Assembly (NCBI GenBank): GCA_049602155.1 | Contig: JBMYRH010000009.1 | Span: 95,391 to 159,390 of the forward strand | DNA length: 64,000 nt | Origin: Myxococcota bacterium | Lineage (GTDB): Bacteria > Myxococcota_A > UBA9042 > PHBI01 > JBMYRH01 | Reading direction: 5' to 3' | Shown: piece after piece, positions 14,256 to 30,298 of the stretch | Position numbering within the stretch: position 1 is the first letter of the stretch | Layout: each line of letters opens with the position of its first letter | The notes under the pieces: model-generated | Told to the model about the DNA's origin: nothing | Databases searched by the model: none | Seen by the model: the letters and a program-made list of their open reading frames with translations, nothing else | Translations under genes and position numbers: made by a program

Positions 14256-17200
14256 TGTCTTCGGCCCTCCCCATACTCATCGCGCTGGCCGCGGTCGCCC
14301 AGAGTCCGGCGCCGTCTACGGCCGCTCCGTCGCTGGATCCACAGCCGGTTGAGGAGGCGGCGACCGAGGTGAAGGAGTTGCCTTCGCTGGACGAGGTCGC
14401 GCCGACGCTAGAGGTCACACAGCCCGTCGAGGCTGCGCCGCCTCACCCCTGTGTTGGCACATCGCTCTACTCGGTGCGCTTGGCGGGCTGTCGTGGACCT
14501 GTCTGCGACTCGGGAGAGATGCGCGCGGGCTTTGTGACCATCACCGACATCGAGCCGGGCCAGACCCTCTCTGCGAATGATGTGTCAGTGGCTATCGCGC
14601 GCCTTGAGGCGACGGGTTTCTTCCGGAGCGTGGCCCTAAAGTGCACGCGAAAGGGAGATCAACTGGCCCTCGTTGTGACGGTTGCGCCGCATCGCTTCGT
14701 CCGCAAAGTCTCGATCCGAGGCAACCAATTCTTCCGTGAGAGCGAGCTGTCTAAGCGCGTGACATTGCACAGCGGCGACGCCTTGAACGTCGAGCCGGGG
14801 CAAGAGTCAGACAGCGAGACCTTGAAGCGGCTCGTGGAGAGCTTGAAGGCCCTCTATTACAAGGAGGGACTTGAGGATGTGCGCTTTGACGTGAAGGTCG
14901 CGCTGATCGATGAGACCACGGTCGACCTCTCTGTCGAAATCACGGAGGGTGAGCGAGACCGCGTACGCTCCTTGGACATCGCCCATCAGCCGGCGGTCGT
15001 CACGCAGCGTGGCGCGATGAAGTGCCCCAGCGTGGAGCCTCGCAAGCTGAGCGCGCTCGTCGGCGTGAACGTTGGAGAGGTGGTCACGGAGCGTCAGCTC
15101 CGCGAGATGAAGCGGCGCCTGAAGAACTTCTTCCAATCGATTGGATTTGAGCGGCCTGACATCGAGGCTGATATCGTCGGCGATCCCTTGGTGCTCCGCG
15201 TCCGTGTCAAGACGAACCAATGCTGGCTGGTTCGAGTGTGGGAGCGTGAAGCCACTTCCTTGAGCGCCTCCCGTGCGGAGCCCGCGTTTCGCTTTCGTGA
15301 CCCGGTGGATACCGACGAGAGCTTCACGGACCCCGCACCGTATGAGCGCAGTCGACTTGAGCCATGGCGCGGCCTCTTGCCCTTCTATGAGTCCGGCGTC
15401 TTTGAGCGTGAAGAGGCGCTGCGTGGCGTGGAAGTGATTCGCGCGATTTTGGCCAGCCAGGGATTCCTCTTCGCCGATGTACGGCTTGAGCATCGGGTGT
15501 TGCAGACGCGCGATAAACGTCGCAATTCGGTGGGTGCATCGCCTGTGATGGGCACGATCGATTACTACCTCACCCGGAACTATGAGCGCCGACTTCAGGG
15601 GCTGACCTTTGAAGGACTGGAGAGCTTTGAAGAGGAGGTCTTGCTGAGCGTGATGGATACCCAGATGTATGATTTCTTGGGTGACCCTGGCGCGATTCAG
15701 ATCCAGAAGGTCCTCTACGACCTCACGAAGGTGAAGCGCTATTATCAAGAGCGTGGCTTCTATGCGTTCCGTTATGCGCTGACTGGAGAGCCTGAGCAGC
15801 GGAGCCCTCGGCGTGTGCGGCGCACGGAGGGCGACTCTGTCGTGTGGGAGTACCGCTTCCGAGATCGTGGCTTCAGGATCCGAAAGCGTAAGGGGCAGAT
15901 GGTCCTCTATCTAGAGATCCCGCTCATCGAGGGGCCGCAGACAAAGGCGACCAAGATCAACATCTTCGGGGCTAAGAGCTTGCCACCGATTTTGGCCAAG
16001 CTGTTGCTTGAGATTGAGACAGGAGGGGCCTACGGAAAGGTCATGCTTGAGTCGGGCCTCAAGCGTATCAAGCTCTGGTACTCCCAACGCGGCTACCATC
16101 AGATGAAGGTCTTCCCCACCTGCAAGGCCTATGATCCGGAGCCTGAGAACGGCGATTGCGACCCCTTCAACGTGCGCTCAGGCAAAGTGGAGATGGTCTA
16201 TCGCATCGATGAAGGCCCTCAAAGCAGCGTCGGTGAGATCTTCTGGCGCGGCAATTTCCGCACGGATCCAGAGGTCTTATTGCGCGACCTGCCACAGCCT
16301 GGTGATCCGTATCGTGCAGAGGATATCGCGACGGCTGCTCGGAAGCTCCGTAACCTTGGCGTCTTCAATTCGGTCAAGATCACCCCCATCGGCATCGATG
16401 AGACCCCGGCGCGAGATGAGATCGCGCTCCTCGTCACGGTCGAAGAGGGTAGGACGCGCTTCATCGATCTCGCGGTTGGTTTCCGCACCATCGATCGGGA
16501 CAGTGACGCGGGCACAAAGGCGCCCGCGTGGTTGGGCTCGATCATCGGTCAAGCGACAGCAGCCTCTGACCGATCCACCAACGGGTTGGCGCGGGGCAGG
16601 GCGCTCGGCTTGCCCGATGTCTTGCTCAAGGTGGAGGCGGAGTACCTTGAGTACAACTTCCTGGGCTTGGGCTGGCAGTTCACTTTGCCCGTGCAGTACG
16701 GGTTCTCGACGAGCGATCCGCTGCGCCTTGGTTCGTTGACCCCGACCATCCGTATCCCGCGGCCAGGGGGCACGGACTTGGAGACGGAGATTAAGCTCCT
16801 CGCGGAGATCGACCGGGTCAATGACCAGATCGATCGCACCGAATTCGGCCTCTATTCGTCACTCAATTGGCCGCTCATGGATCAGATGACCCTGGGGTTC
16901 GCGCTCGACTTTGGGATGATCTGCTTTAAGCAGCCGGGAGACAGCAACCCGATCTGTGATCTGGATGAGTACTCTCCTCAGTTCCGACCCTCAATCCGTT
17001 GGCGCTGGGACACTCAGAACAACCCCCTTAACCCCACCAAGGGCTTCACGCTCTCGGGCGAGTTTAAGTACATCTTCGGGCGCAGCAGTGACGAACTTAT
17101 CGGCCTTGAGACCGCCAATGATTTGGGCACCGAGTACGCCAATTTCTTGAAGTGGGAGACCAGCGCCGAGGTCGTGATAGACACGCGCATCGGACCGATC

Positions 17201-17761
17201 ATCGCGGCCTTTGTACGCTACGGTGGCAGCCATCAGATCGGCGGAGATGGTACGTCACTGCTCCCCGCCAACGAGATCTTCACGCTGGGGGGATCCAACG
17301 GTGTGCGAGGGTATACCGACCACGCCATCGGTCGCTATGACGCCGCTGGGCTCCTCGACCGTGGCTGGCTCGATGCGAACGGAAACCGCGTCGGCGCCAT
17401 CTACGATTATCGTCAAGATGGTGGCGGCAACGTGGTCCTCAACGGAAGCATGGAGGTTCGAATCCCGCTCGTGAAGCGAATTGGGCTCTGGGCGGCGACC
17501 TTTGTGGACGCAGGGGCGATCGCCCGAACGCACTCCGATATTCACCTTGAGAGCTTCCGTTTCTCCGCGGGCGCCGGCATTCGCTACCTCATCGGCAATC
17601 AGATCCCCGTGCGGCTCGACTGGGGGTTTGCGTTGGGCGACCCGCGCTGCACGGCTTGGTCCAGGACGGCGGACCTGTCCTCGGACACGCTCGCGGCGGA
17701 CGCCTGCGCCAAGGAAGAGGAGGGCAACCGCATTCACTTTGACCTGCTCTATCCGTTCTAG
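14255..17761 (+). CDS. Omp85-family outer-membrane protein (BamA/TamA-like) with extended N-terminal POTRA region.
   Basis: 1168 aa with a signal peptide (MSSALPILIALAAVAQSPA) and a Pro-rich linker. Repeated POTRA-like segments are followed by a C-terminal beta-barrel ending ...RIHFDLLYPF (terminal aromatic beta-signal). Confidence 0.75.
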   Translation: MSSALPILIALAAVAQSPAPSTAAPSLDPQPVEEAATEVKELPSLDEVAPTLEVTQPVEAAPPHPCVGTSLYSVRLAGCRGPVCDSGEMRAGFVTITDIEPGQTLSANDVSVAIARLEATGFFRSVALKCTRKGDQLALVVTVAPHRFVRKVSIRGNQFFRESELSKRVTLHSGDALNVEPGQESDSETLKRLVESLKALYYKEGLEDVRFDVKVALIDETTVDLSVEITEGERDRVRSLDIAHQPAVVTQRGAMKCPSVEPRKLSALVGVNVGEVVTERQLREMKRRLKNFFQSIGFERPDIEADIVGDPLVLRVRVKTNQCWLVRVWEREATSLSASRAEPAFRFRDPVDTDESFTDPAPYERSRLEPWRGLLPFYESGVFEREEALRGVEVIRAILASQGFLFADVRLEHRVLQTRDKRRNSVGASPVMGTIDYYLTRNYERRLQGLTFEGLESFEEEVLLSVMDTQMYDFLGDPGAIQIQKVLYDLTKVKRYYQERGFYAFRYALTGEPEQRSPRRVRRTEGDSVVWEYRFRDRGFRIRKRKGQMVLYLEIPLIEGPQTKATKINIFGAKSLPPILAKLLLEIETGGAYGKVMLESGLKRIKLWYSQRGYHQMKVFPTCKAYDPEPENGDCDPFNVRSGKVEMVYRIDEGPQSSVGEIFWRGNFRTDPEVLLRDLPQPGDPYRAEDIATAARKLRNLGVFNSVKITPIGIDETPARDEIALLVTVEEGRTRFIDLAVGFRTIDRDSDAGTKAPAWLGSIIGQATAASDRSTNGLARGRALGLPDVLLKVEAEYLEYNFLGLGWQFTLPVQYGFSTSDPLRLGSLTPTIRIPRPGGTDLETEIKLLAEIDRVNDQIDRTEFGLYSSLNWPLMDQMTLGFALDFGMICFKQPGDSNPICDLDEYSPQFRPSIRWRWDTQNNPLNPTKGFTLSGEFKYIFGRSSDELIGLETANDLGTEYANFLKWETSAEVVIDTRIGPIIAAFVRYGGSHQIGGDGTSLLPANEIFTLGGSNGVRGYTDHAIGRYDAAGLLDRGWLDANGNRVGAIYDYRQDGGGNVVLNGSMEVRIPLVKRIGLWAATFVDAGAIARTHSDIHLESFRFSAGAGIRYLIGNQIPVRLDWGFALGDPRCTAWSRTADLSSDTLAADACAKEEEGNRIHFDLLYPF

Positions 17762-18663
17762 AGGGGCGGGTCGCGCACCTCTTGCCGCGCGCGGAGGGCG
17801 TCGACGTAGTAGTGGGTGTCTTGACCCGGTTGGAGCTCCCCTGTTGAGATCTGAGCCTCAAGCCAAGCGATGAACTCGCCGACCTGAGGGCCAGGCTTGA
17901 TGTTCATGTCGCTGCAGAGCGCGCTCCCGAGCCGCGGAGGGAGGGTCGGTGCGGCGTTCGCTTTCGCATTCATCCGGGCGATCCGCTCGGTGAGCTCGGC
18001 CAGCTGGGCGCGAATCCTGCTCGCGCGCCTCGGCCGCTTGGTTGTGTAATCCGCGCTGCTAAATCGAAGCATGTCCTCAAGGTGCTCGCCTGCATCTCGG
18101 ATCAACCGTCGGATGGCGCGATCGCTCCAGCTCCCTTCGTACGCGTTCACGCGCGCGTGGTGCTCTACGACGAAGGCGATGCGCTCACGGCGCGCATCGG
18201 GCATATGAAGTCGTGCAGCGATGCCGTGGGTGAGCCAGGCCCCGAGCTTCTCGTGACCATGAAAGCTCACTTGGCCATGCCCAAAGATCGCGCGCGTCGC
18301 CACCTTGCCGATGTCATGGAGCAGTGCGACCCACCGCAGATCTGCGTCCACTGGGGTGCGCTCTAAGACCTCGAGCGTATGTGACCAGAGGTCTTTGTGA
18401 TGCACCGGCGAACTCAAGTGAAAGTTCACCAAGGCGTGCACCTCGGGGAGCCACACTGCCAACGCCCCTGTGGACTCCAACCACTGAAGTGCCGCCCCCG
18501 CGTTCGGACCCGTGAGCACCGTGTCTAGGCACGTCAGGGCACCAGGGGACTGCACATCGATGAGCCTGCCGATGTCACGGCGAATGCCTGCCTCAGTCGG
18601 AGGGGCAGTCGTCCCATTGGCGATGGCTGGGGCGAGCGTCAGGATGTCGGCGGGCACCGTCAT
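17758..18663 (-). CDS. HD-domain phosphohydrolase family protein.
   Basis: 301 aa. H..HTLEV....ALLHDIGK (HD motif) and VVEHHARV. Its stop overlaps the Omp85 stop region (convergent). Confidence 0.65.
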   Translation of the reverse strand: MTVPADILTLAPAIANGTTAPPTEAGIRRDIGRLIDVQSPGALTCLDTVLTGPNAGAALQWLESTGALAVWLPEVHALVNFHLSSPVHHKDLWSHTLEVLERTPVDADLRWVALLHDIGKVATRAIFGHGQVSFHGHEKLGAWLTHGIAARLHMPDARRERIAFVVEHHARVNAYEGSWSDRAIRRLIRDAGEHLEDMLRFSSADYTTKRPRRASRIRAQLAELTERIARMNAKANAAPTLPPRLGSALCSDMNIKPGPQVGEFIAWLEAQISTGELQPGQDTHYYVDALRARQEVRDPPL

Positions 18664-18996: not shown

Positions 18997-19093
18997 GCCA
19001 TATATGGCACCATAGGTGTCGCGTCCTGTCCAGTGGGGTTTCGATACGCGTCAACCTTGAATCCAGGGTGGAGGATCGACTAGCTTCGTGGCC

Positions 19094-20392
19094 ATGAATG
19101 CACGCCCCCTATTGTTCGCCTTGTCCCTCTTTTTGCTCCCGTCTGCAGGCGCCTGCGTGGACGTCGGGACTGACCCTGGCCCCGAGCCCACGGTGCCGGA
19201 CATCGAGGAGCCTACGGTGGAGGGCTGCGAAGAGGCGGAGCAGCAGACGTATCGATGCCGCGACAACGAAGAAGAGGTCCAGATCTGTAAAGAGGCCGCT
19301 GTGGGTGAGTTCGTCTGGGATACGATCGACTTCTGCGAGGAGGATCAGGGCTGCTTTGCGAGCCCCTTGAACGCCTACCCCGCCTGCATGTCGAAGTTCG
19401 ACTGCTATTCTGTGGTCTACGAGCTGATCTCATGTGACAGCGCCCCTCAGCTGGGCGCTTATGATCGCATTGAGTGCAGAAACGGTGTGGAGCGCCTGGC
19501 CCTCGATGATAGCTATCAGGACCTCTACACCTGCTATTACGACTTCAACTGCCACGAGACGAAAAACCCGACCGACTGCGTCATGGAGCGGTGCAGTGAC
19601 TTGCTCCTCGCGTGCGTGGAGGGTGAGGCAGGCCCCCCAAGAGCCGGTAGTGAGGCATCGAGCCCAGAGCCCAGCATCCCAGATGAGGGTGGAGCCGACG
19701 TGTCAGAGGAAACGGAGGATCCCGGGGTGGGAGCCGATGCGTCGAATGATGAAAGTGTCGATGCCGTCTCAGCCGAGAACCCTCCCGGAGCACTTGAGGT
19801 GCCCGAGGGGTGCGAGGTGGACTTCATCACCTGCGTCTCGGGTTGCGTGCCGACCTGCCTCGCAGACTGTGACTCCAGTACCGAGGGCCCGGTGACGGAC
19901 TACGCGCACGGCCTTTGTCAGCAAGAGTGTCCCTCGAGCTGTGTCGAGACGTGCGCAGCGGAAGAAGATCATATGGGGCCGATGGAGCTCTTGGGCATGG
20001 GGAACTGTGCGACCCAATGCGCCAACGTCTCGGGCATGTCGATTCAAGCATGTTTGCTGCAGCAATGCCCTCAGGCTGTCGCGCCTTGCTTCCAGGGCAC
20101 CTTTGGGAGCTCAGAGGTGTGCTCGGAGACCGTTGAGTGTCTGTTCCAGTCAGTCTCTGCTGAGCCTGTCACCTCGACCCTTGAGTGCGCCGCAGAGGCT
20201 ACCCAAGACACCCTGGATCAGGCGGTCGCAGTGCTCGCCTGTGTGTCTGAAGCGACCCGGGCAGGCGAGCCATGCGCTTGGGATGCCTCCTCTCTCCCGT
20301 GGGCCGATCATGTGGCCGCGGAGGCCGCGTGCTTCGCCGAGGCTTGCGGTCCTGAGCTCTACAGTTGTCCCAGCGACCTGTTCGGTAACTGA
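19094..20392 (+). CDS. Acidic Cys-rich lipoprotein, hypothetical (432 aa).
   Basis: Signal peptide plus lipobox (MNARPLLFALSLFLLPSAGAC). About 40 Cys spaced as CxxxC/CC pairs. There is a central acidic low-complexity linker (PEPSIPDEGGADVSEETEDPGVGADASNDES). ATG 19094 is chosen over the upstream GTG 19088. Confidence 0.7.
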   Translation: MNARPLLFALSLFLLPSAGACVDVGTDPGPEPTVPDIEEPTVEGCEEAEQQTYRCRDNEEEVQICKEAAVGEFVWDTIDFCEEDQGCFASPLNAYPACMSKFDCYSVVYELISCDSAPQLGAYDRIECRNGVERLALDDSYQDLYTCYYDFNCHETKNPTDCVMERCSDLLLACVEGEAGPPRAGSEASSPEPSIPDEGGADVSEETEDPGVGADASNDESVDAVSAENPPGALEVPEGCEVDFITCVSGCVPTCLADCDSSTEGPVTDYAHGLCQQECPSSCVETCAAEEDHMGPMELLGMGNCATQCANVSGMSIQACLLQQCPQAVAPCFQGTFGSSEVCSETVECLFQSVSAEPVTSTLECAAEATQDTLDQAVAVLACVSEATRAGEPCAWDASSLPWADHVAAEAACFAEACGPELYSCPSDLFGN

Positions 20393-20408: not shown

Positions 20409-23400
20409 TCAGGAGATCTTCTGACCCGTGAGGCCAAGGATGGCCTCATTGTCCGGCGTGCTGACCCACGTCTTCCGCTTCTCAGCGTCCTCGATCGTGC
20501 CGGCGATACTGCGGAGCGCGTCGACGGCTTGCAGCATCAACGCGTCTGCTGCCTGCTTCCGCCCCACGCCTCGCCTCGCCCGACTCAGGACGAAGAGCAG
20601 CTGATGGGTAAAGCGCGTCCAACCCGTCTTCCGTTGACCTAACTGAAGGGCGTCCTCTGCGAGCTGCAGTCCTTCGACAGGCTTCCCTGCCTTGATGAGC
20701 GCTTGAGAGCCGTAGGCAGAGGCGCGCGCAGCGCGACCAAACGCCTGGCGTCTCGTCGCTTGAATGACCAAAGAGTGCGCCTCTTTGGCCATCTTCGCCG
20801 CGACGGCCGCGGGGGCCTTCTGGAGGCTGAGGTTCATCAGCCCGAGGCGCGCGTCGGCCATCAGCATCCAATCAGGTGTGTCGCGCACGATCGCCGTGAC
20901 CCTCTGGAGTCGGTCAGCCGCCTCACCACGACGGCGCTCAAGCTGAAGGGCCGCGGCTTCGGCCAAGAGGGCCTGGCCCATGGCCACGGCGTCCGCGTCG
21001 CGCTCGCCGAGCTGGGCAGCTTGCTCCGCATGATCCCGGGCGGAGGCCGCCCAGCCGAAGTCGACATGGAGACGCGCGAGGTCAAGCTCGACACGAGAGG
21101 AGAGCCCGCGCACGTGGTCGGCTGGCAGCTCGATAGAGACCTCGATGAGCGCCTCTAGGGCGGCCTCTGGTCTCCCTGCCTGGACGAGCAAGCGCGCAGC
21201 TAAGATATCTGCGGTGAGTTCATGGTTGCGCTCTCCAGCTTGCTCTGCTGCGGTGCGGTACTCATCGACAGCTTGCTGAGCATCACGAGTCCACTCAAGC
21301 TCCGTTAAGATCTCCGCCAAGGCGCCCATCAGCCGCATCCATACTGCAGGCCGAGGACGTTCACCCTTGCGCGCGTCCTGGATCGCCTGAAGCGCGCCGG
21401 CCGTGTCACCTGTAGCATAAGCGCTCATGACGCGCGCCCAGCTCCGCAGACCGAGGGCATCCACACCGGGGCGACCAGGCTCAAGGGCGACGCGCGCCTC
21501 GGCCTGTCGCGCCATTCGTGTCCAATCCTTTTGCTCAAAGGAGGAGACCACCTGGGTCTCCAGAGCGAAGGCGAGGGTGGGCATATGGGCGGCCTCGGTG
21601 CCCACCTCGACGAGCGCTGCGCTGGCCTTGTCGAAGGCGTCGAGATCTCCCTCCTGCATCGCATGACGGACACGGGCCTTATAGAGCATCGCCCGCCATC
21701 GCCACGCTTCATCAGCCTCCTCGGGTCCAAGTTGCCGCTCGAGCAGCTCCTCCGCTTGATCGAGGAGCGCCGCGGAATGCGCTGCAGCGTCTGCGCCTCC
21801 GGACTCTGACGCGGCGACGACGAGGTGGGGGGCGGCGAGCACAGGCCGGTCGGAGAGGATGAGGTGATCGGCGACGAGCTTACGTTGGCCGTTGAAGCGC
21901 TCCTCAGCGTGGATAGCGCGGGCCAGCCGGCGGTGGAGCTGTTGACGCTCCCCGCTGGGCAGCGACTCATAGATGCCCTGCCGCCAGCGATCGTCACTGA
22001 CCAGCAGCATGCCGTCGCCTTGTGACGCTAAGACGCCATCGGTCAGCAGCGAAGGTACGTACTCGGCGTCGTCGTCGAAGTAGCGCTCAATGATGGTCTC
22101 AGGGAGCGCCTGCTGGAGGATCGCGAGGAGGGCGTCTAGACGCCCAATCTCGTCGCCGCTTGGTGCAGCCAGGGTCGCGTCGACACCCGCTTCCAAGACA
22201 TAGCCGCCGCCCACGCGCTTCAATGTGCCGCGTCGGAAGAGGTCGTGCATGACGGCGATGAGGCCCGCGGGGGCCCCCTTAGCGGACTCGTGGAGGCGCT
22301 TGAGCTGCTCGGGGCCGATGACCCCGCGACCTACGGTTCGCTCCATCCACAGCGCGGTTTGCTCTAAGCTGATGGGTTGAAGGGGGACGACCGTCGCCTC
22401 TTCCATCTTGATGAATTGTTCGAAGGCGTCTGGCGCCGTCGGCTCCTCGTCTGGGTTCACGCTGGCCATGACGCGCAGCTTCTCGTTTCTCGCTGCAGTG
22501 AGGGCAGCCTGTAACACCGCGATACTTGAGCGGTCGGCGCGCTGCAGGTCCTCGATCACCAAGAGCGTCGGGCCATGAAGCCGCGTCAGCATGGTCGCCG
22601 CACCACTGCAGCCTCGAAGCAGCTCCTCATTCTCGTCAGGGTTCTCTGCTTGTCGCAGCCTGCTGAAGATGTCGATGGCGGGCTTGAGGCATTCCAGTGG
22701 ACCTTCTGTGCCCGTGAACCGGAGGCGAATGACGCGCGATCCACCGACCGCGCCTCGGTCTGCGAGCTCATGGAGCAACCAAGAGGCGTCGTATCCGCCG
22801 GGCGCGCGCGCGACGAGCAGCCGGGGTCGGTCGGTCTCGATCGCCATGCCTGGCTTGAGCCAGGAGAGGCAGCTGTCGCCGGCCCCCAAGAAGTCATCAC
22901 GGCCTGGAAATGGGCTCGACTGCAGGTGCTTACCGAAGGCGCTCTCGGTCTCGATCAGCGGCGTCTGCTCTGTGGCCTCGCAAAGACGCACGAGCACCTC
23001 GTGGGCGTGCGATGGTCGGTTGTCTGGGTCGGGTGACAGCAGCTCATAGATGAGCGCCTCGACGCCTGGGGGGCAGTCCGGGTGGGAGATCTTCGGCGGC
23101 TGGTTCTTGAGGCGCGCTTTGAGGAGCTCGTTCTCGTCGCTCCCTGACCAGGGGCGCTTCCGCTCCACCAGCTCGTAGAGGACCAAACCGAACGCGTAGA
23201 GGTCAGAGCGCTGATCGAAGGGGTCGCCGGCGAGCATCTCGGGGGCACAGTACTCGGGCGTCCCGATGAAGAACCCCTCTGGGGCCTTACCCAATCGGGT
23301 AGCGACCCCGAGGTCGATCAGACGGCAGGCCCGGTCTCCCGTGTCTTGCATGTCGACGAGGACGTTGCCTGGCTTCAGATCTCGATGCAGCCACCCCATG

Positions 23401-23771
23401 CGATGGATGTAGTCGAGGGCGCGTAAGAGCTGTGTCATCCACGGCCAAGAGTCTTGAAGGCGCTTTACACGTCGGATCGCTAGGATCAGCGGGATTCCGC
23501 GACAGTACTCGAGTGAGAAGTAGGGCACCTCACCCCCGCGCGGGTGCTTGGCGAAGCCAAAGTCATGGACGCGCGGGATGTTGGGGTGGTCGAAGCCTCG
23601 CTGGGCGACGAACTCGTCGAGGAAGGTCCCAATGGAGTGGCGAAATTCGGGGAGCAATATCTTGATGGCGACGGGATCCGAGGCCTCAGCGAGGTCTCGC
23701 GCCAACAAGACACGCCCCATCCCACCCTCACCGAGGGTGCGCTGGAGTTGGTAACGACCGTCCCAAGTCAC
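20409..23771 (-). CDS. Ser/Thr protein kinase fused to an AAA/STAND-like NTPase and a TPR-like C-terminal region (1120 aa).
   Basis: Kinase motifs: GEGGMGRVLLA, VAIKIL, HRDLKPGNVLV, DLGVA, GTPEYCAPE. The ~700-aa Ala/Leu-rich C-terminal region is typical of the NTPase/TPR regions of myxobacterial kinases. The GTG start at 23771 overlaps the stop of the upstream HTH gene (GTGA). Confidence 0.85.
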   Translation of the reverse strand: MTWDGRYQLQRTLGEGGMGRVLLARDLAEASDPVAIKILLPEFRHSIGTFLDEFVAQRGFDHPNIPRVHDFGFAKHPRGGEVPYFSLEYCRGIPLILAIRRVKRLQDSWPWMTQLLRALDYIHRMGWLHRDLKPGNVLVDMQDTGDRACRLIDLGVATRLGKAPEGFFIGTPEYCAPEMLAGDPFDQRSDLYAFGLVLYELVERKRPWSGSDENELLKARLKNQPPKISHPDCPPGVEALIYELLSPDPDNRPSHAHEVLVRLCEATEQTPLIETESAFGKHLQSSPFPGRDDFLGAGDSCLSWLKPGMAIETDRPRLLVARAPGGYDASWLLHELADRGAVGGSRVIRLRFTGTEGPLECLKPAIDIFSRLRQAENPDENEELLRGCSGAATMLTRLHGPTLLVIEDLQRADRSSIAVLQAALTAARNEKLRVMASVNPDEEPTAPDAFEQFIKMEEATVVPLQPISLEQTALWMERTVGRGVIGPEQLKRLHESAKGAPAGLIAVMHDLFRRGTLKRVGGGYVLEAGVDATLAAPSGDEIGRLDALLAILQQALPETIIERYFDDDAEYVPSLLTDGVLASQGDGMLLVSDDRWRQGIYESLPSGERQQLHRRLARAIHAEERFNGQRKLVADHLILSDRPVLAAPHLVVAASESGGADAAAHSAALLDQAEELLERQLGPEEADEAWRWRAMLYKARVRHAMQEGDLDAFDKASAALVEVGTEAAHMPTLAFALETQVVSSFEQKDWTRMARQAEARVALEPGRPGVDALGLRSWARVMSAYATGDTAGALQAIQDARKGERPRPAVWMRLMGALAEILTELEWTRDAQQAVDEYRTAAEQAGERNHELTADILAARLLVQAGRPEAALEALIEVSIELPADHVRGLSSRVELDLARLHVDFGWAASARDHAEQAAQLGERDADAVAMGQALLAEAAALQLERRRGEAADRLQRVTAIVRDTPDWMLMADARLGLMNLSLQKAPAAVAAKMAKEAHSLVIQATRRQAFGRAARASAYGSQALIKAGKPVEGLQLAEDALQLGQRKTGWTRFTHQLLFVLSRARRGVGRKQAADALMLQAVDALRSIAGTIEDAEKRKTWVSTPDNEAILGLTGQKIS

Positions 23772-24604
23772 GCCTCAGCACCTCCCATGGTCGCTGAGAG
23801 CCACAAAGGGACGACGGTCCGGGCATCTCGAGAGAGCTGAGTCTTGAGTCGGGCCGCTGTGGGGGCACCGCGGGCCACCTCGTACAGGTACGTCACAGAC
23901 CAGGGGCCGTTTCCAGGTGTGACTGCGATCATCGCCCCGCTCGCCCTTGCGCGCTTGAGTTGCTTGGGCGTGGGTGGGCTTGAGGAGTGATCGCCGGGCA
24001 CTTGAACGCTGAATTCGATCGCGTCGGAGGTGACGGAGAGGGCGACTCGGGGGCGATCGAGGAATCCAGGGGCTCCTTCACCCTCTGCCCACGTCATCGT
24101 GACGTGGTCGATAGACTTCATATGGGCTTCGAGCCGCCACGCAGACGTCCTGTTGGCCTCGGACGGAGAAGGATGCAATCGGTCGTTAGAGAGGCGCACC
24201 AACGTGGGGTGGAGCGCGTCCCCTAACGCAGCGAGGCCATCCCTCACTTGCTGGCGAAACAGGTTGTGCGTGGGATCGGCCGCGTGATGCCCAAGGGACA
24301 TCAAAGCGTCGCGGCTCACGAAGGGCGTCTCATCATCGTTCGCTGGCAAGATCACCGTCTCTGCGCTGTCGAACGCGACCCTCTCCTCGGGCTCAGCGAC
24401 CGCTTTGATGGGCGCGACGACGGGGGTTGGGATGAGGAGCGGACCCTGAGCGCTCAGCCAAGTGAGCACATCCTGGCTGATGAACCGCACCTGATCGGCG
24501 ATCACCACCCGTGGCATATCAGTCTCCTGAATCAGGCGAGCCAGGAGAGGTGGGTCGATTTGAAGGAGCTTCGCCAACTCCACGTCGGTCAACACCGGTG
24601 CCAT
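23768..24604 (-). CDS. Hypothetical protein with N-terminal excisionase/MerR-like HTH; co-transcribed with the kinase.
   Basis: 278 aa. The N-terminus LTDVELAKLLQIDPPLLARLIQETDMPRVVIADQVRF resembles an HTH_17/excisionase-like DNA-binding helix. There is a 4-nt overlap with the kinase start. Confidence 0.55.
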   Translation of the reverse strand: MAPVLTDVELAKLLQIDPPLLARLIQETDMPRVVIADQVRFISQDVLTWLSAQGPLLIPTPVVAPIKAVAEPEERVAFDSAETVILPANDDETPFVSRDALMSLGHHAADPTHNLFRQQVRDGLAALGDALHPTLVRLSNDRLHPSPSEANRTSAWRLEAHMKSIDHVTMTWAEGEGAPGFLDRPRVALSVTSDAIEFSVQVPGDHSSSPPTPKQLKRARASGAMIAVTPGNGPWSVTYLYEVARGAPTAARLKTQLSRDARTVVPLWLSATMGGAEA

Positions 24605-24702
24605 GGCCTGGAGTCTAGCCCGACCAGAGGGCTCTGCCTAGGTCCCCTTGGGACCATTTTTACGATCGCGCGGTCGTGTCGACCCAAGACGGGTTGGTTT
24701 GC

Positions 24703-26229
24703 TCAGCGCGTGCGCGACCTGCGCATCTGCTTTCCAGCTTTTGGTGCTGCCTTCTCTTTGCTCTTTTTCTTCGCCTTTTGGGGGATCACGTTGACGGACG
24801 GAGGGGCAGGTGCCCGCCTGGTGACTGGACGCTTGGGTACAGCTGTCCGTGTCCGTTTAGGGGTCACCCGTCGCGATCGGGTCGCCGGTGGTGCCACGAT
24901 TTTACGTGTCGTCGTTCGTGGACGCACGGCGGGCCGTGTCGGGCGCGTCGTGCGGGTCGCTTTGGGTCGTGGCGCGGGTCTCGGCGCTGGGCGCTGGGCG
25001 GCAGGTCGCCGTGGTGCTGCGCGTCGCGCTGCTGGCCGCTCCGGCGCTGCACTGCGGCGCCGTTGAGCAGCAGGAGGCTCGCGTGTGGGACGTGACTGAC
25101 CGCTGGGGCGTGCATCTCTCCGACGCTCTGGAGGTTGAGCGTAGCGTGGGTTTGTCGCAGGGAGTGGGCGTCGAGGTTCAGCACGTCGGGTCTCTTCCTC
25201 TTCGTCGTCGCCTCTGTCTTCGGGGCGATACGGCTTGGCCGTCTCGGACCACAGGTGTGTGGCTGCCTCCTCGGTCTTTTTGGGCTTCACGACGACGGTC
25301 GGCGTCGCAGGGCTGTGGCCCTTCGGCTTCACGACGACGGTCGGGGTACTGGATGCCTCGGCATATCGCGCGGCGCGGGTGCGTGTGTGATGGTGAACAT
25401 GACCGTGGCCGTGCGCGTGGTGGTAGTGGGCGTAGTGTCCGTAGAGCAAATGCCCAGGTCGATGCCACGTCCCAGCGACCCAATGGCCTGGGAGCCAGCG
25501 ATGGCCGTCCCAACAGCCGGGGGCCCAGGAGTAACCATGGCGGTGTGCGGGCCGCCAATAGCCCAGCCCCCATACGTAGTTCGTGGCGTAACCGGGGACC
25601 CAAATGAAGCCTGATCGGCGCGTGATTGGTGACCAGTAGCCGCCGTACCAGACGCCGTCTGCGTAGTAGCCGTTGACCCAGGCGTAGCCGTCCATGCTCG
25701 AGGGTCGCCAAAACCCAATCCGCCAAAGGCGCTGTGGGCCCAGGACGTGACCGGGGACCCAGACGGACTCGATCCGGTCGGTCGTGGGGCGCCAGTGACC
25801 TGAGATCCACGCACCGTCATCATCGTAATAGCCGTCGATCCACTCGAAGCCTTCGGCAACCTCGACGCGCCAGAAGCCCTGGACCCACACGCCATCATCG
25901 GCGCGGTGACCGCGCACCCACCGGTAGGTCTCACCGTCTTGAGGCGCCTCGGGGATCCACTGACCGGGGACGTTGAGTCCGTAGTCGTCGACATGAGGTG
26001 GGATCCAACGCTCATCGGGGCGCTCAGGTTCCCTGTAAAACCCCTGAATCCACGTCTCGTCTGCCGCGCGATGTCCAGGGACCCAGACCCACCCATCCGC
26101 TTCGGCTGCAGCGGCGTCAGAGCTATGTGTGATGGACGCGGGCGCTTGCGCATACGCCGGAACAGAGGCGGCACATATGAGCGCCGTCAGCGCGGCTGCG
26201 AGGGTGTGGTTGATTGAAGGGCTGGGCAT
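24703..26229 (-). CDS. Secreted YXWGXW-repeat protein with His-rich tract and basic Pro/Arg/Lys-rich C-terminal tail.
   Basis: Signal peptide MPSPSINHTLAAALTALICAASVPAYAQA, with AGGAG 6 nt upstream of ATG 26229. About 12 Trp/Gly repeats (WVPGHRA, WVRGHRADDGVWVQGFW, GYWSP, GYWRP, WLPGHWVAGTW). His tract HYAHYHHAHGHGHVHHH. The ~170-aa C-terminal tail is rich in R/P/K/T/A. Confidence 0.7.
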   Translation of the reverse strand: MPSPSINHTLAAALTALICAASVPAYAQAPASITHSSDAAAAEADGWVWVPGHRAADETWIQGFYREPERPDERWIPPHVDDYGLNVPGQWIPEAPQDGETYRWVRGHRADDGVWVQGFWRVEVAEGFEWIDGYYDDDGAWISGHWRPTTDRIESVWVPGHVLGPQRLWRIGFWRPSSMDGYAWVNGYYADGVWYGGYWSPITRRSGFIWVPGYATNYVWGLGYWRPAHRHGYSWAPGCWDGHRWLPGHWVAGTWHRPGHLLYGHYAHYHHAHGHGHVHHHTRTRAARYAEASSTPTVVVKPKGHSPATPTVVVKPKKTEEAATHLWSETAKPYRPEDRGDDEEEETRRAEPRRPLPATNPRYAQPPERRRDARPSGQSRPTREPPAAQRRRSAAPERPAARRAAPRRPAAQRPAPRPAPRPKATRTTRPTRPAVRPRTTTRKIVAPPATRSRRVTPKRTRTAVPKRPVTRRAPAPPSVNVIPQKAKKKSKEKAAPKAGKQMRRSRTR

Positions 26230-26404
26230 TGGAGCTCCTAGGTCGCGGGCGTCTGAGAACTCAGACGATGGCCCCCGCGATTTATTCAACGCGCCCTGCA
26301 AGCATGTCGACCCGCGGGTCTCCAGGCAAGACAAAGGCCCCGAAGCTAGGCGCGTGATGGCCAGCCTCGGAGCCCTTGTGGAGACTCACGATCGCGTCGG
26401 TCCG

Positions 26405-29400
26405 CTAGGGAGCGACGACGTGGATATTACCGACCATCATCGGGTGGAACTGACAACGGTAGTTGTAGTAGCCCTCGGTCGCCATGGTGACGGTCACGTT
26501 GCTCGTCGCACCGTCCTGCGCGTCGAAGATCGTGTCCTCAGCACACAGCAACTCGAAGGGATGACCCCCAGAGGCCTCGATGGTCACCGTTTGACCGACC
26601 GCGACGCGTAAGCATTTGGTCGAGTACGGAGAGCCTGCGCCCATGATCGCGACATCGATCGTCCCCTCCATGGCGGTCATATCACCAGCGACGAAGTCCT
26701 CCTCTGTGCAGTCCGCGTAGTCCGCCTCGCAGGCGAACGCGGGCGCGTCCGCCTCACAGACGCCTGCGTTGCAGCTCTCGCCGTCACCGCAAGTGCCACA
26801 GTCGATGGTGCCGCCGCAGCCGTCGGTCTCGGTGCCACAGGTGACGCCGTCGGAGCAGGCGATGGCCGGGGTGCAGTCCGCCTCACAGACGCCCGCGTTG
26901 CAGCTCTCGCCGTCTCCGCAGGTGCCACAGTTGACGGTGCCGCCGCAGCCGTCGTCCATGGTGCCGCAGACCATGCCCTCGGTGCACTCGGTGGCCGGGG
27001 TGCACGTCTCACACGCGCCGCATGTCCCTACACCGTCCGCGAAGCACACAGGCCCCACATCAACGGTCACGCCGCTGTTGACGTCGTCGGCGCCGACCTC
27101 GAAGAAGTAGTTGTTGTTCTCGGTGTCGAAGCTGCACTCGTCGGGTGCGCTGGAGATCACAGACCATGCACCGATGGTGGGCTTCCATTGCCAGGTCTTC
27201 GGTGAGAGGTACTGAGTGAAGCTGTAGATGCCGTCCATATCGGTGTCAGTGCCCGTGTTTGAGCAGGAGCCACACCATTCGTTGAACTCTCCTTGGAAGT
27301 TAGGTGCAGCGCTCGCATCGTAGCTGTTCATGTCGACGTGGAGCTCAACGTGAGCCCAACCGCAGACAGTGGACTCGCCACACTCCCACCATGCGCTTGT
27401 TGCCGTACAGGCCTCGCCATCGAAGCAACCCATGCAATCGCTGGGGCAACCGTTGGCGGCGAACGTCGGCTCATCGCTGACGCATGCACCGTCGGTGCAG
27501 GTCTCACCCTCGCCACAGGCGGGGTCGCACGCCACGGGAGCTTCACAGGCGCCGCAGGTGCCGAAGCCGTCTGCGAAGCACACAGGGCCGACCGCGACAA
27601 CCTCGCCGCTGTTGACGTCGTCTTCGGTGACCTCGAAGAAGTAGTTGCTGTCCTCAGCGTTGAACCGACACCCCTCAGGTGCGCTGGAGATCACAGTCCA
27701 CGATCCGATGCTCGGCTTCCACTGCCAGGTCTTGGGTGAGAGGTACTGCGTGAAGCTGTAGACGCCGTCCATGTCGTCGTCAGTGCCCGTATTGAAGCAG
27801 TCACCGCACCAGTCGTTGAACTCACCCTGGAAGTTGGGCGCAGCGTTCATGTCGTAGTTGTTCATGTCGACGTGGAGCTCGACCTGAGCCCAGCCGCAGA
27901 CAGTGGACTCACCGCAGGTCCACCACTCGTCGGTGGTCGTGCAGGTCGCGCCGTCGTAGCAGCCTTGGCAATCGGTGGGGCAGCCGTTCGCGGCCATGGG
28001 GGTCTCATCCGCCATGCACATGCCCGCGGTGCAGGTCTCGCCGTCGGCGCAGGTGCCGCACTCAAGGGTGCCACCACAGCCGTCGTCCATAGTGCCGCAG
28101 TTCATCGCGCCGCAATCAGCAGCAGGAGTGCATTCTGCGGTGCACATGCCCTCGGAGCAGGTCTCACCGTCGGCGCAAGTGCCGCACTCAATGGTGCCGC
28201 CGCAGCCGTCATCCATGGTGCCGCAGTTCATGGCCTCACCGCACTCGGTCGCTGGCTCGCAAGGATCGCTGCACGCGCCATCGACACAAAGCTGACCGTT
28301 CTCGGAGCAGTCCGTGGTCACGGCGGTGAACTCGCCACAGTCGTCCGCATCCTCATTACAGGACGCGTCGTATTCGGTGAGGATGTCGCCATCACAGGTC
28401 GCCGCTTGCTCACAGAGCGTCGCGGTCATCTCGTGGCCACAACCGTCGGCGTCACAGGTGGGGGCGTAGGTCCGGACCTCGGCCAAGCCGTTGGCTCCGA
28501 CGCACTCGCTGGCCTTCGGGACGTCGCAGTCCTCCACGTCGCTCGTGGTGTACTCACATGCGGTGCCCTCGGCGTTACAGGCGCCGGTGGCCTCGTACGC
28601 CACGATCATCAAGCCCATGCAGCCGTTCGCTTTCGCGTCCGAGCAGAGGCTGATGGTCTCGTCTTGGCCGCACACTCCGTCATCACAGGAGGGGGCGTAG
28701 GTCCAGGTCTGGGCTGCGACGGTGGTCGTGCACAGACCGTCGGTGCAGACCGCATCATCGTCGGCGCAGGGCGTGTCGTCGTCACAGGCGTCGCCCGTGA
28801 GTGAGGTCACGCATGCATCGTCTTGGGCGATATCGCAGTCCGTCGTAGCCTCTTCGTAGCTGCAGGGATCCGAGTCGTCCTCGGTCTCGGCGCAGACGCC
28901 AACTTGGGCGTAGGTCGTCGCCATCAGCCCATCGCAGCTGTCTGCGGGGGGCGCTTCACAAGCGACAGGGGTGTCGACACAGGCGCCAGTGGCGGTCTCG
29001 CAAGCTGAGGTGACGCAGTCGCCAGCGCTCGCGGCGCAGTCGACCTCGCTGTTCGGGACAGGCTTGCACTCACCGGTCTCTTCACCGACGAACTTCTGGC
29101 ATGACCAGATGCCGTTGCACATGTCGCCGTCGTCCAGGGACGCGCAGTCCTCTTCGGTGGTGCAGGCGGCGCAAGGCTCACCGTTACCTGGCTTACATGT
29201 GCCGTTTTGGCAGTAGTCGCCGTCGTTCTCGCAGTCTGCGCCGGGGGCGCAGCCTGTGCAGGGATCGCCGTCATCGCAGGCGAGGTAGTTCTCGACCGGA
29301 GTCAACTCGCACGCGCCCGTGCCTGGGTTGCACGCATTCGTGCGGCATCCACCGTTGTCGGAGCCCTCGGAGCAGGTGACCTCGCTGTCGGCCACTGGGG

Positions 29401-30085
29401 CGCAACTGCCCTCGACACAGCCCCAGAGTCCGTTGCAAAGGTCACCATCGTCGTAGATGGCGCACTCTGCGTCGGTCGAGCATGTGCAGATGTCACCGTC
29501 TTCGGTGACGCCGTTGATCTCTGCCCCTGCGCACGCGCCCTCGGCGCAGACATCGCCGCTCGTGCAGGGGTTGCCGTCGTCGCACACGGCTGCGTTCGCC
29601 GTGTTTGCACAGTCGCCAGTCTCGGCGTCGCAGGTGTCGTCAGTGCAGGGGTTGTCGTCGTCGCAGAGCACCGTCGACACGTCCACACAGAGGCCGCTCG
29701 CGCACTCGCCAATCGTGCACGCCGTCCAGTTCTCCTCGTTGCACGGCGTCCCGTCATCGGACGTCCGCACGACACATTGGCCACTGTCATTGCAGTAGCC
29801 GCCTTCGCAGGTCCCTGCGTCGGGGTGGTCGCATGAGGCCCATGTGCTGCGGGTCTGCTTCACGCAGGTGCCTGCATCACAGACTGCGTCCTCGCACGGC
29901 GTCAGGTCTGAGAAGGTGTCAGCGCACTCGGCGTCATACCCACACTCATGGTCTGGCGTCGGGATGTCCGTCGTGGCCGTCGAGCCAGCATCGGTCGTGG
30001 TGTCGATACCGCCGTCGTCGCTGCAAGCGATGAGCGCTGAGAAGCCAACGAGGATGGCGAGGGTAAAGATTCTGTTGGGCGTCAT
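26405..30085 (-). CDS. Giant Cys-rich multidomain lipoprotein (~1226 aa) with two CBM20/48-like modules and a C-terminal cupredoxin (amicyanin/pseudoazurin-like blue-copper) domain.
   Basis: ATG at 30085 with GGAGGT 9 nt upstream. Lipoprotein signal MTPNRIFTLAILVGFSALIACSDDGG. The N-terminal ~550 aa are myxo-type Cys-rich repeats (CDDDNPCTDDTCD, CDDGNPCTSGDVC, CDDGDPCTGC). There are four CGTMDDGCGGTxECGTCxDGExC modules and two ~145-aa modules with GEFNDWCG...DGVYSFTQYLSPKTWQWKPSIGSW (CBM20/48-like). The C-terminus ...IEASGGHPFEL...EGYYNYRCQFHPMMVGNIHVVAP fits the Y-x-Y-x-C-x-x-H-P-x-M type-1 copper signature. Confidence 0.8.
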   Translation of the reverse strand: MTPNRIFTLAILVGFSALIACSDDGGIDTTTDAGSTATTDIPTPDHECGYDAECADTFSDLTPCEDAVCDAGTCVKQTRSTWASCDHPDAGTCEGGYCNDSGQCVVRTSDDGTPCNEENWTACTIGECASGLCVDVSTVLCDDDNPCTDDTCDAETGDCANTANAAVCDDGNPCTSGDVCAEGACAGAEINGVTEDGDICTCSTDAECAIYDDGDLCNGLWGCVEGSCAPVADSEVTCSEGSDNGGCRTNACNPGTGACELTPVENYLACDDGDPCTGCAPGADCENDGDYCQNGTCKPGNGEPCAACTTEEDCASLDDGDMCNGIWSCQKFVGEETGECKPVPNSEVDCAASAGDCVTSACETATGACVDTPVACEAPPADSCDGLMATTYAQVGVCAETEDDSDPCSYEEATTDCDIAQDDACVTSLTGDACDDDTPCADDDAVCTDGLCTTTVAAQTWTYAPSCDDGVCGQDETISLCSDAKANGCMGLMIVAYEATGACNAEGTACEYTTSDVEDCDVPKASECVGANGLAEVRTYAPTCDADGCGHEMTATLCEQAATCDGDILTEYDASCNEDADDCGEFTAVTTDCSENGQLCVDGACSDPCEPATECGEAMNCGTMDDGCGGTIECGTCADGETCSEGMCTAECTPAADCGAMNCGTMDDGCGGTLECGTCADGETCTAGMCMADETPMAANGCPTDCQGCYDGATCTTTDEWWTCGESTVCGWAQVELHVDMNNYDMNAAPNFQGEFNDWCGDCFNTGTDDDMDGVYSFTQYLSPKTWQWKPSIGSWTVISSAPEGCRFNAEDSNYFFEVTEDDVNSGEVVAVGPVCFADGFGTCGACEAPVACDPACGEGETCTDGACVSDEPTFAANGCPSDCMGCFDGEACTATSAWWECGESTVCGWAHVELHVDMNSYDASAAPNFQGEFNEWCGSCSNTGTDTDMDGIYSFTQYLSPKTWQWKPTIGAWSVISSAPDECSFDTENNNYFFEVGADDVNSGVTVDVGPVCFADGVGTCGACETCTPATECTEGMVCGTMDDGCGGTVNCGTCGDGESCNAGVCEADCTPAIACSDGVTCGTETDGCGGTIDCGTCGDGESCNAGVCEADAPAFACEADYADCTEEDFVAGDMTAMEGTIDVAIMGAGSPYSTKCLRVAVGQTVTIEASGGHPFELLCAEDTIFDAQDGATSNVTVTMATEGYYNYRCQFHPMMVGNIHVVAP
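27000..28080. repeat. Intragenic tandem duplication, 2 copies of ~537 bp at ~85% identity, encoding the two CBM-like modules.
   Basis: Nearly identical stretches. Copy 1 (27181..): gcttccattgccaggtcttcggtgagaggtactgagtgaagctgtagatgccgtccat. Copy 2 (27711..): gcttccactgccaggtcttgggtgagaggtactgcgtgaagctgtagacgccgtccat. Similar antisense ORFs 26769..27110 and 27369..27644 in the track reflect the same repeat. Confidence 0.7.
28080..28300. repeat. Intragenic short tandem module (2 x ~117 bp) encoding CGTMDDGCGGTxECGTCADGETC. A second pair lies at about 26690..27000.
   Basis: Antisense ORF 27975..28295 shows two internal copies of VSPSAQVPHSxVPPQPSSxVPQF, and 26769..27110 shows two copies of LSPSPQVPQ..VPPQPS. 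The protein has four near-identical GC/GT Cys modules. Confidence 0.5.
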
Positions 30086-30298
30086 GAGGGCCGACCTCCG
30101 TGATTTGGGCCGCGTCACAGTATCCGAAGGTTGTGCCCGGGACAACAAGCGCCTGACACCCAATGGTCACTTGTCGTGATTCTGTGCCCGATATCATCAT
30201 AAGTGCTTGTTTACGCTGGTGAATAAAGTTTGGCAATGTGGGTTCGGATCGCCGTACTTCGGTGCCTCAGCAGAGTGATAAAAGAGGCACGACCGCCG

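Follow-up and report, generated by a model that had tools for sequence, protein, structure and literature searches.

A soluble Ser/Thr kinase with a degenerate STAND module, encoded in overlap with a helix-turn-helix/DUF1054-fold protein in an uncultured Myxococcota bacterium

Introduction

What relationship is to be expected between a DNA-binding protein and a large signalling kinase when the gene of the first runs into the gene of the second? The question is raised by a locus in a 64,000 nucleotide stretch of DNA (the window; contig JBMYRH010000009.1, positions 95,391 to 159,390 of the forward strand) from the Myxococcota bacterium of assembly GCA_049602155.1. Here the gene for a 278 amino acid helix-turn-helix (HTH) protein (gene 1; 23768..24604, minus strand, stop included) overlaps the gene for a soluble 1120 amino acid Ser/Thr kinase (gene 2; 20409..23771, minus strand, stop included). 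A first reading, made from the letters alone and called here the sequence-only reading, described the large protein as a STAND-like kinase-NTPase-TPR fusion, and proposed that the pair lies directly upstream of a cupredoxin/His-rich cluster which it may regulate. As analysed here, the two genes are best explained as a single operon that belongs to the core part of the chromosome conserved in an uncultured, mostly marine Myxococcota clade. On balance we favour, by analogy, a kinase and transcription-factor module similar to PknK/VirS or PknL/Rv2175c of Mycobacterium tuberculosis, in which the kinase would phosphorylate its partner and the partner would bind DNA.

Results

Gene pair and junction

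The first gene starts with ATG and the second with GTG, and both open reading frames (ORFs) are present in the ORF list exactly with the coordinates and lengths that had been claimed. Judged by their homologues both ORFs are real genes: 21 are found for the HTH protein (55-96% identity) and 31 for the non-kinase part of the large protein (32-91% identity), the latter being approximately 1100-1140 amino acids long, except for two partial entries and one of 1214 amino acids. On the minus strand the junction (...ccatGGGAGGtgctgaggcGTGActtgg) reads gcGTGAct, in which the TGA of gene 1 (23768-23770) and the GTG of gene 2 (23769-23771) share the four nucleotides GTGA (23768..23771, minus strand), as the sequence-only reading had it. 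A Shine-Dalgarno-like GGGAGG (23781..23786, minus strand) is located within the 3' end of gene 1, 9 nucleotides 5' of the kinase GTG, and purine-rich counterparts are present in the related loci L001, L002 and L005. As gene 2 starts inside the stop of gene 1 and behind this element, the two genes are probably translationally coupled and the two proteins probably co-produced. The next gene downstream is convergent (19088..20392, plus strand), which makes the unit of the pair bicistronic.

GTG 23771 is the earliest possible start of the kinase ORF and the only one which retains kinase subdomain I and the Gly-rich loop (TWDGRYQLQRTLGEGGMGRV). The sequence TWDGRY..LGEGGMGRV is common to homologues with a start equivalent to it. 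Approximately 18 of 29 database homologues of the kinase (P0025, P0027, P0028, P0030, P0032-P0035, P0037-P0039, P0044-P0050) are annotated from a methionine equivalent to M18 (MGRV...) and lose strand beta1 and the Gly-rich loop. These annotations are probably a systematic gene-calling error, caused where the kinase starts with GTG or TTG in overlap with the gene before it; a TTG kinase start is found in L010.

Kinase domain

Residues 1-274 of the large protein (22950..23771, minus strand) form a Hanks-type Ser/Thr protein kinase domain which, by profile match and alignment, is catalytically complete in its motifs. The Pkinase profile (PF00069) matches residues 7-259 with E=1.8e-40 and 139.5 bits against a curated cutoff of 31.7, in agreement with the N-terminal kinase first proposed, and the nearest sequence relatives of the domain in the PDB are PknB and PknA (E about 1e-42). 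All the hallmarks of the family are found, i.e. the Gly-rich loop, the VAIK lysine, the alphaC glutamate, the HRD aspartate, the asparagine, the DFG aspartate and the APE motif (in the window LGEGGMG, K37, E53, H129-R130-D131, K133, N136, D153-L-G155 and A176-P-E178). In an alignment of thirty sequences K37, E53, H129, D131, K133, N136, D153, G155, P177, D190 and R252 are invariant and R130, A176 and E178 nearly so. Since the catalytic residues are invariant throughout this alignment, the kinase is predicted to be active. The remark that large kinase fusions are typical of myxobacteria is in line with the literature, where kinase-TPR fusions are reported as frequent in these bacteria (PMC11032199).

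A STAND module without Walker A motif

The remainder of the large protein, residues 275-1120, gave an AlphaFold2 model with a predicted local distance difference test (pLDDT) score of 88.3. The model contains a beta-alpha-beta core of nucleotide-binding type, a helical and winged-helix region, and a solenoid of about 25 helices, i.e. the STAND arrangement of a P-loop NTPase fold followed by a helical arm with winged helix and by a C-terminal repeat sensor. The top-ranking structure in Foldseek was 6mfv_A (E=1.8e-10). On the basis of this model the region is, by fold, a MalT-type STAND module. Its first part is the nucleotide-binding-domain fold (NOD) with a degenerate active site (residues 275-468; 22368..22949, minus strand). 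The helical arm and winged-helix-like region (residues 469-605; 21957..22367, minus strand) is delimited by the secondary structure of the model (positions 195-330) and lies within the structural matches to MalT and PH0952. The third part is a TPR-like alpha-solenoid sensor resembling MalT domain III (residues 606-1120; 20412..21956, minus strand), which opens with a conserved HRRLARAIH and in which the TPR-like C-terminal region of the sequence-only reading is recognised.

The degeneration of the NOD is evident in the loop that should carry Walker A. Strand beta1 of the model consists of LLVAR (318-322), and A329 is the first residue of helix alpha1; by translation, the loop between them is APGGYDAS (residues 323-330; 22782..22805, minus strand), a remnant in the position of Walker A. 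In the columns of thirty family members the position of the lysine (column 329) is occupied by Gly in 19, by Ala in eight, and by Thr, Asp and Val in one each, and that of the Ser/Thr (column 330) mostly by Ala (12) or Gly (six), with Ser in four and other residues in the rest; G326 and D328 are nearly invariant. A regular-expression scan for [AG]x4GK[ST] or GK[ST] found neither motif in the window protein or in its 29 relatives, and four of the thirty have no lysine anywhere in the NOD. A Walker-B-like strand is still present in the translation as LLVIED (residues 403-408; 22548..22565, minus strand; strand E128-133 of the model), with Glu or Asp at position 407 in 29 members, while the second acidic position, 408, is not conserved (Gly in 11, Asn in 11, Asp in six, His in two).

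AAA_16 (PF13191), the match proposed as a check of the NTPase assignment, scores 20.4 bits with the whole protein and 28.1 bits with the isolated NOD, both below the curated cutoff of 32.6, and the alignment in the window NOD covers only profile positions 106-161 of 167, which is the Walker-B half with the LLVIED segment; all 14 NOD segments tested match AAA_16 weakly. Against PDB sequences the NOD profile gave chance-level matches only and no sequence-level match to any solved STAND protein, which places the NOD very far from these proteins in sequence. The fold is clearly conserved and under purifying selection. To judge from its residues, however, the NOD is not a canonical NTPase and canonical P-loop chemistry is gone: with the Walker A lysine and Ser/Thr lost throughout the family, it cannot act as a canonical ATP-hydrolysing switch. 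The description as a STAND-like NTPase therefore stands for the fold, and fails in part for the NTPase, Walker A being absent on careful alignment in all thirty members and only the Walker-B-like strand being left.

The partner protein

The AlphaFold2 model of the 278 amino acid protein (pLDDT 77.5) has three parts. Residues 1-56 (24437..24604, minus strand) are an excisionase/MerR-type winged helix-turn-helix (HTH_17), in which the short strand, the helix-turn-helix, the beta-hairpin wing and the C-terminal helix of this fold are all seen. The HTH_17 profile (PF12728) matches 18 of the 21 family members, with a best E of 5.3e-8; the L010 orthologue scores 31.1 bits, P0005, P0007 and P0010 have precomputed PF12728 matches, and the window protein itself is matched weakly (17.4 bits). 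Residues 57-90 (24335..24436, minus strand) are a poorly conserved linker predicted to be disordered (pLDDT <50), varying in both length and sequence in alignments A1 and A6. Residues 91-278 (23771..24334, minus strand) adopt in the model the YktB/DUF1054 fold and carry the conserved NLxRxQxRD...RTSPWR, both motifs of which are conserved across the wide family. The name HTH protein thus holds for the N-terminal domain, while the domain that makes up two thirds of the protein had been missed.

The relation to YktB is one of structure. The Pfam profile of DUF1054 recognises none of the 21 members at E<=1, and the sole trace of the relation in sequence is a weak profile match to 2a8e (E=0.67) in the same helix-loop segment. 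A HMMER search of 1.84 billion cluster representatives returned only about 22 full-length relatives of the protein; beyond these it gave only small HTH proteins, matched through the N-terminal domain. In the literature searched DUF1054 occurs in only four papers, with a single mention in each and never in the title or abstract.

Within the DUF1054-fold domain conservation in alignment A6 is highest in the motif E-x-x-R-T-S-P-W-R (residues 149-157; window about 24134-24160), with T153 and W156 invariant, and this motif aligns with HARRS...TW of Bacillus subtilis YktB. It may mark a functional site of the whole fold family. Two threonines were considered as phosphosites and set aside. T83 is invariant among close relatives only. 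T153 is invariant throughout the family, but as its motif is also found in YktB (RRS) it is more likely a residue of fold or function than a phosphoacceptor.

Conservation of the pairing

A search for loci in GTDB genomes returned six with the kinase alignment, and no relative with alignment A1 of the HTH protein; the wide alignment of the HTH protein contained no conserved stretch that this search could use. The HTH gene lies directly upstream of the kinase gene in the window, in the P0002 contig, and in L001, L002-L004, L005, L006/L007 and L010; the two genes are adjacent in seven distinct relatives and separated in one (L012). Across the loci that carry the pair the identity of the kinase falls to 46-50% and that of the partner to 39-43%. 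A 4-nucleotide overlap, GTGA or ATGA, is also found in L001-L004 and in the P0002 contig, a 1-nucleotide spacer in L006 and L010, and a 33-nucleotide spacer with GGAGG in L005, giving junction spacings of -4, -4, -4, +1, +1 and +33 nucleotides.

The pair is part of a block composed of a tRNA U5-methyltransferase gene, a PMT_2 gene, the His-rich gene, the pair itself, and HD, Omp85 and TamB genes. As this block is syntenic across genomes, some of the adjacency is simply inherited. The adjacency is nevertheless kept in L006 and L010 despite a different downstream block, and together with the tight spacing across lineages this goes beyond plain inheritance.

Promoter region

Between the HTH gene and the His-rich gene, which is located 5' of the pair on the same strand (24703..26334, minus strand), there is a spacer of 98 nucleotides. 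In the window and in L001-L004 it contains two conserved blocks, CTAGGCAGAG and GGTCGGGCTAGACT, with variable sequence between them. The first includes a candidate -35 hexamer TAGGCA (24635..24640, minus strand); a candidate -10 hexamer TAGACT, conserved in position, is found 7 nucleotides 5' of the HTH ATG (24612..24617, minus strand). The exact arrangement TAGGCA-N17-TAGACT is present in the window and L001-L004. L005, L006 and L010 have unrelated sequence around this position and nevertheless carry TATACT 6-7 nucleotides before the start codon, and a TAnACT hexamer at this distance is thus common to six lineages (window, L001, L002, L005, L006 and L010). This -10-like hexamer so close to the ATG, taken together with the lack of a convincing Shine-Dalgarno sequence before it, suggests that the pair has its own promoter and that its mRNA is leaderless or nearly so. 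Conservation is the whole basis of this proposal.

The same spacer carries a perfect 6-bp palindrome, GGTCCC-N3-GGGACC (24641-24655), which abuts the candidate -35 and on the plus strand is followed by ATTTTT, in the manner of a terminator. As a conserved operator it was discarded, being not conserved in L001-L004. A search for repeats in the intergenic region gave nothing else of note, and no Rfam family, including tRNA, matched between 18500 and 27000.

Neighbouring genes

The position of the His-rich gene argues against one part of the sequence-only reading: lying on the same strand and 5' of the pair, with the conserved promoter-like element between them, it has the pair downstream and not transcriptionally upstream of it. 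Nor is a cupredoxin domain detectable in 24703..26334 or in 26405..30163, the two ORFs upstream of the pair. The product of 24703-26334 (minus strand; ~510-540 amino acids) looks secreted, with a signal-peptide-like N-terminus, many repeats of the type W-x-x-G-[HYF]-W-R, a His-rich block (HYAHYHHAHGHGHVHHH) and a long, very basic tail of Pro, Arg and Lys. It has no Pfam match, and the GC content at third codon positions of its gene is lower than in the neighbours and below the filter of 0.68. Homologues of the gene (36-55% identity) are found upstream of the HTH gene in every locus carrying the partner, and both genes are absent from the examined stretch of L012. This joint presence and absence is a weak hint compatible with a regulatory link.

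The large ORF 26405-30163 (minus strand) encodes 1252 amino acids, for which the Pfam matches, to X25_BaPul_like and to the CTDC repeat of Dictyostelium, are all sub-threshold. Over approximately 120 residues at its end it matches, with 66% identity, the C-terminus of an L002 protein that has a Fasciclin domain; just upstream of the gene for this protein, L002 has a gene resembling dual-specificity and Tyr phosphatases (DSPc/Y_phosphatase). On the other side of the pair, the convergent gene 19088-20392 (plus strand) encodes a Cys-rich, acidic, secreted-looking protein of 434 amino acids without Pfam match, with 39% identity in L001. Further away, a TamB-like gene (1467 amino acids) and an unusually long Omp85/POTRA gene (1168 amino acids) overlap by one nucleotide (9852-17761, plus strand), and an HD-domain gene (17758-18663, minus strand) overlaps this block convergently at its far end. 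L001, L005 and L012 have the TamB-Omp85-HD block in synteny with the kinase.

Discussion

Comparison with known systems

The closest parallels to the pair are two kinases of M. tuberculosis. PknK, which is soluble and has a STAND domain at its C-terminus, phosphorylates the regulator VirS, and PknL phosphorylates the winged-HTH protein Rv2175c (PMC4601284). The window protein shares with PknK the nature of a soluble Hanks-type Ser/Thr kinase of ~1100 amino acids with a STAND-type regulatory region at the C-terminus, and PknK acts in one step on a DNA-binding transcription factor encoded nearby (PMC4601284). The order of the parts, kinase, NOD and MalT-like repeat sensor, is also shared; orthology is not claimed. 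In distinction to PknK, the window family lacks the Walker A motif. The partners differ as well, VirS being an AraC regulator whose gene is merely nearby, whereas the window partner has HTH_17 and DUF1054-fold domains and a gene which overlaps that of the kinase. With PknL and Rv2175c the likeness is that a Ser/Thr kinase gene adjoins a gene for an excisionase-like winged-HTH protein, which in that case is the substrate; Rv2175c, however, has 146 amino acids, and its phosphosite T9 lies in an N-terminal extension without counterpart in the window protein (PMC4601284). A DUF1054-fold domain is not part of Rv2175c. PknL, for its part, is a membrane kinase that is not known to have a STAND module.

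From the side of the sensor the comparison is with MalT of Escherichia coli and with PH0952, in which the sensor likewise opens with a motif of the HRRLA type. MalT has a canonical P-loop, through which it binds ATP, and a LuxR-type DNA-binding domain within the same protein. The window protein has a degenerate P-loop, its effector is the N-terminal kinase, and DNA binding, if any, would come from the separate co-translated protein. The YktB-type proteins in the two solved entries of DUF1054 (UPF0637; PDB 2a8e and 3mqz) are stand-alone chains of approximately 205-220 amino acids, in contrast to the window domain, which is fused to an HTH, linked to a kinase, and recognised by Pfam in none of the 21 family members.

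In the proposed mechanism the TPR-like sensor and the degenerate NOD would keep the kinase inactive as long as the sensor is unoccupied. Binding of a ligand or protein to the sensor would activate the kinase, which would first autophosphorylate and then phosphorylate the HTH protein expressed with it; the linker or the C-terminal domain of this partner would be the probable target. Phosphorylation would alter DNA binding or oligomerisation of the partner and hence transcription. The HTH protein would in this way provide in trans what MalT has in cis, the DNA-binding output. The physical interaction of the two proteins, the phosphorylation, the DNA binding and the target genes are inferred by analogy with the systems described above.

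Several observations weigh against this interpretation. The 17.4-bit score of the window protein with HTH_17 is below the Pfam cutoff of 27, and the role given to the DUF1054-fold domain is a guess, since the fold is without a characterised member. The proposed promoter was not called by a scan for the sigma-70 consensus. The overlap of the two genes is not universal, L005 having its 33-nucleotide spacer. The loci that carry the pair all belong to one lineage with extensive shared synteny (from the tRNA methyltransferase to HD-Omp85-TamB), and the adjacency could largely be inherited rather than selected. In L012 a kinase with 48% identity keeps HD-Omp85-TamB downstream and has an ABC transporter upstream in place of the partner, and the more distant kinases with 32-38% identity (L008, L013-L015) have no adjacent partner.

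Alternative explanations

The last of these observations leave room for two other accounts of the pair. The 278 amino acid protein could be an input or regulator of the kinase rather than its substrate, with the DUF1054-fold domain or the linker docking in the TPR-like sensor and the kinase being held on or off, perhaps according to the DNA-bound state of the HTH, while the real substrates lie elsewhere. Docking would then resemble that of MalK, MalY and Aes on MalT, or of signalling peptides on RRNPP receptors, and it is MalT domain III and the peptide-binding receptors Rap, AimR and NprR to which the sensor is most similar; coupled translation, moreover, favours stoichiometric complexes, and kinases such as that of L012 and the more distant ones exist without an adjacent partner. 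We hold this account to be rather doubtful, for the known neighbouring pairs, PknK-VirS and PknL-Rv2175c, are enzyme and substrate (PMC4601284); docking as a regulator and docking as a substrate are, all the same, neither distinguishable nor mutually exclusive. It would also be conceivable that a pleiotropic signalling kinase and an independent HTH regulator share an operon as neighbours in this lineage with no direct link between them. The large-scale synteny around the pair in all related contigs, by which adjacency may be inherited, and the missing partner beside the kinase of L012 and those with 32-38% identity speak for such an arrangement, which is nonetheless unlikely: the 4-nucleotide overlap or 1-nucleotide spacing has been kept while the partner diverged to ~40% identity, the adjacency outlasts two independent downstream rearrangements (L006 and L010), and the unit has a promoter-like element of its own and is closed by a convergent gene.

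Two further explanations concern phage defence and mobile elements. STAND-plus-effector architectures are common in defence systems, and the PADLOC kinase models mad6, PD-T4-6, MkoA and PglW match the kinase protein, which would speak for an anti-phage module of STAND (Avs or NLR-like) or kinase type with an HTH regulator. None of these matches extends beyond the generic kinase domain (residues 3-281) and the partner is not matched at all, the locus lies in conserved housekeeping synteny (tRNA methyltransferase, PMT, HD, Omp85/TamB, malic enzyme) and not in a variable island, and there are no integrase or mobile-element genes nearby. Characterised STAND defence proteins also need the P-loop for NTP-dependent oligomerisation, and this loop is absent in the kinase family. 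A defence function is thus very improbable, and was rejected on the restriction of the PADLOC matches to the kinase domain and on the housekeeping context. Hardly credible, finally, is the idea that the HTH protein serves an integrated element as excisionase or recombination directionality factor and that its gene overlaps the kinase gene incidentally. The N-terminal domain does resemble RdfS, Xis and AlpA, with a weak match to TIGR01764 'excise' (E=0.16), but the protein is 278 amino acids long with a large extra domain, neither an integrase among the neighbours nor an att-like repeat or tRNA nearby is found, and the chromosomal position is conserved across diverged genomes.

Returning to the kinase and transcription-factor module, a more far-reaching form of it may be put forward tentatively, and we regard it as possible rather than probable. 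The NOD of this kinase family could be an obligate pseudo-NTPase, i.e. a STAND switch in which a conserved P-G-x-D replaces the P-loop and which works without binding or hydrolysing nucleotide, and together with the lineage-restricted HTH_17/DUF1054-fold partner it would constitute a dedicated one-step Ser/Thr pathway of 'two-component-like' design, with the DUF1054 fold as phospho-receiver or docking domain. If this is true, it would be the first function for the uncharacterised DUF1054 fold family. Operation of such a switch without nucleotide chemistry is also debated for some plant NLRs.

Significance

Limits to the reach of these results are set by the uncultured state of the organisms, by the small size of the family and by an overall logic, that of a kinase encoded next to a transcription factor, which was already known. 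PknK-type kinase-STAND-TPR proteins are, on the other hand, numerous in myxobacteria and actinobacteria, and for hardly any of them is the input, the output or a partner known. At this locus the overlapping gene offers an obvious candidate partner, and whether it is a substrate or a regulator can be tested directly with the two purified proteins. The pair also provides a first functional context for the YktB/DUF1054 fold. Every member of the kinase family is without the Walker A lysine, and the family is in this respect a natural experiment on whether a STAND-type switch can run without nucleotide chemistry. Within a design of kinase plus regulator that is known, the missing P-loop and the DUF1054-fold context are the concrete and testable new points.

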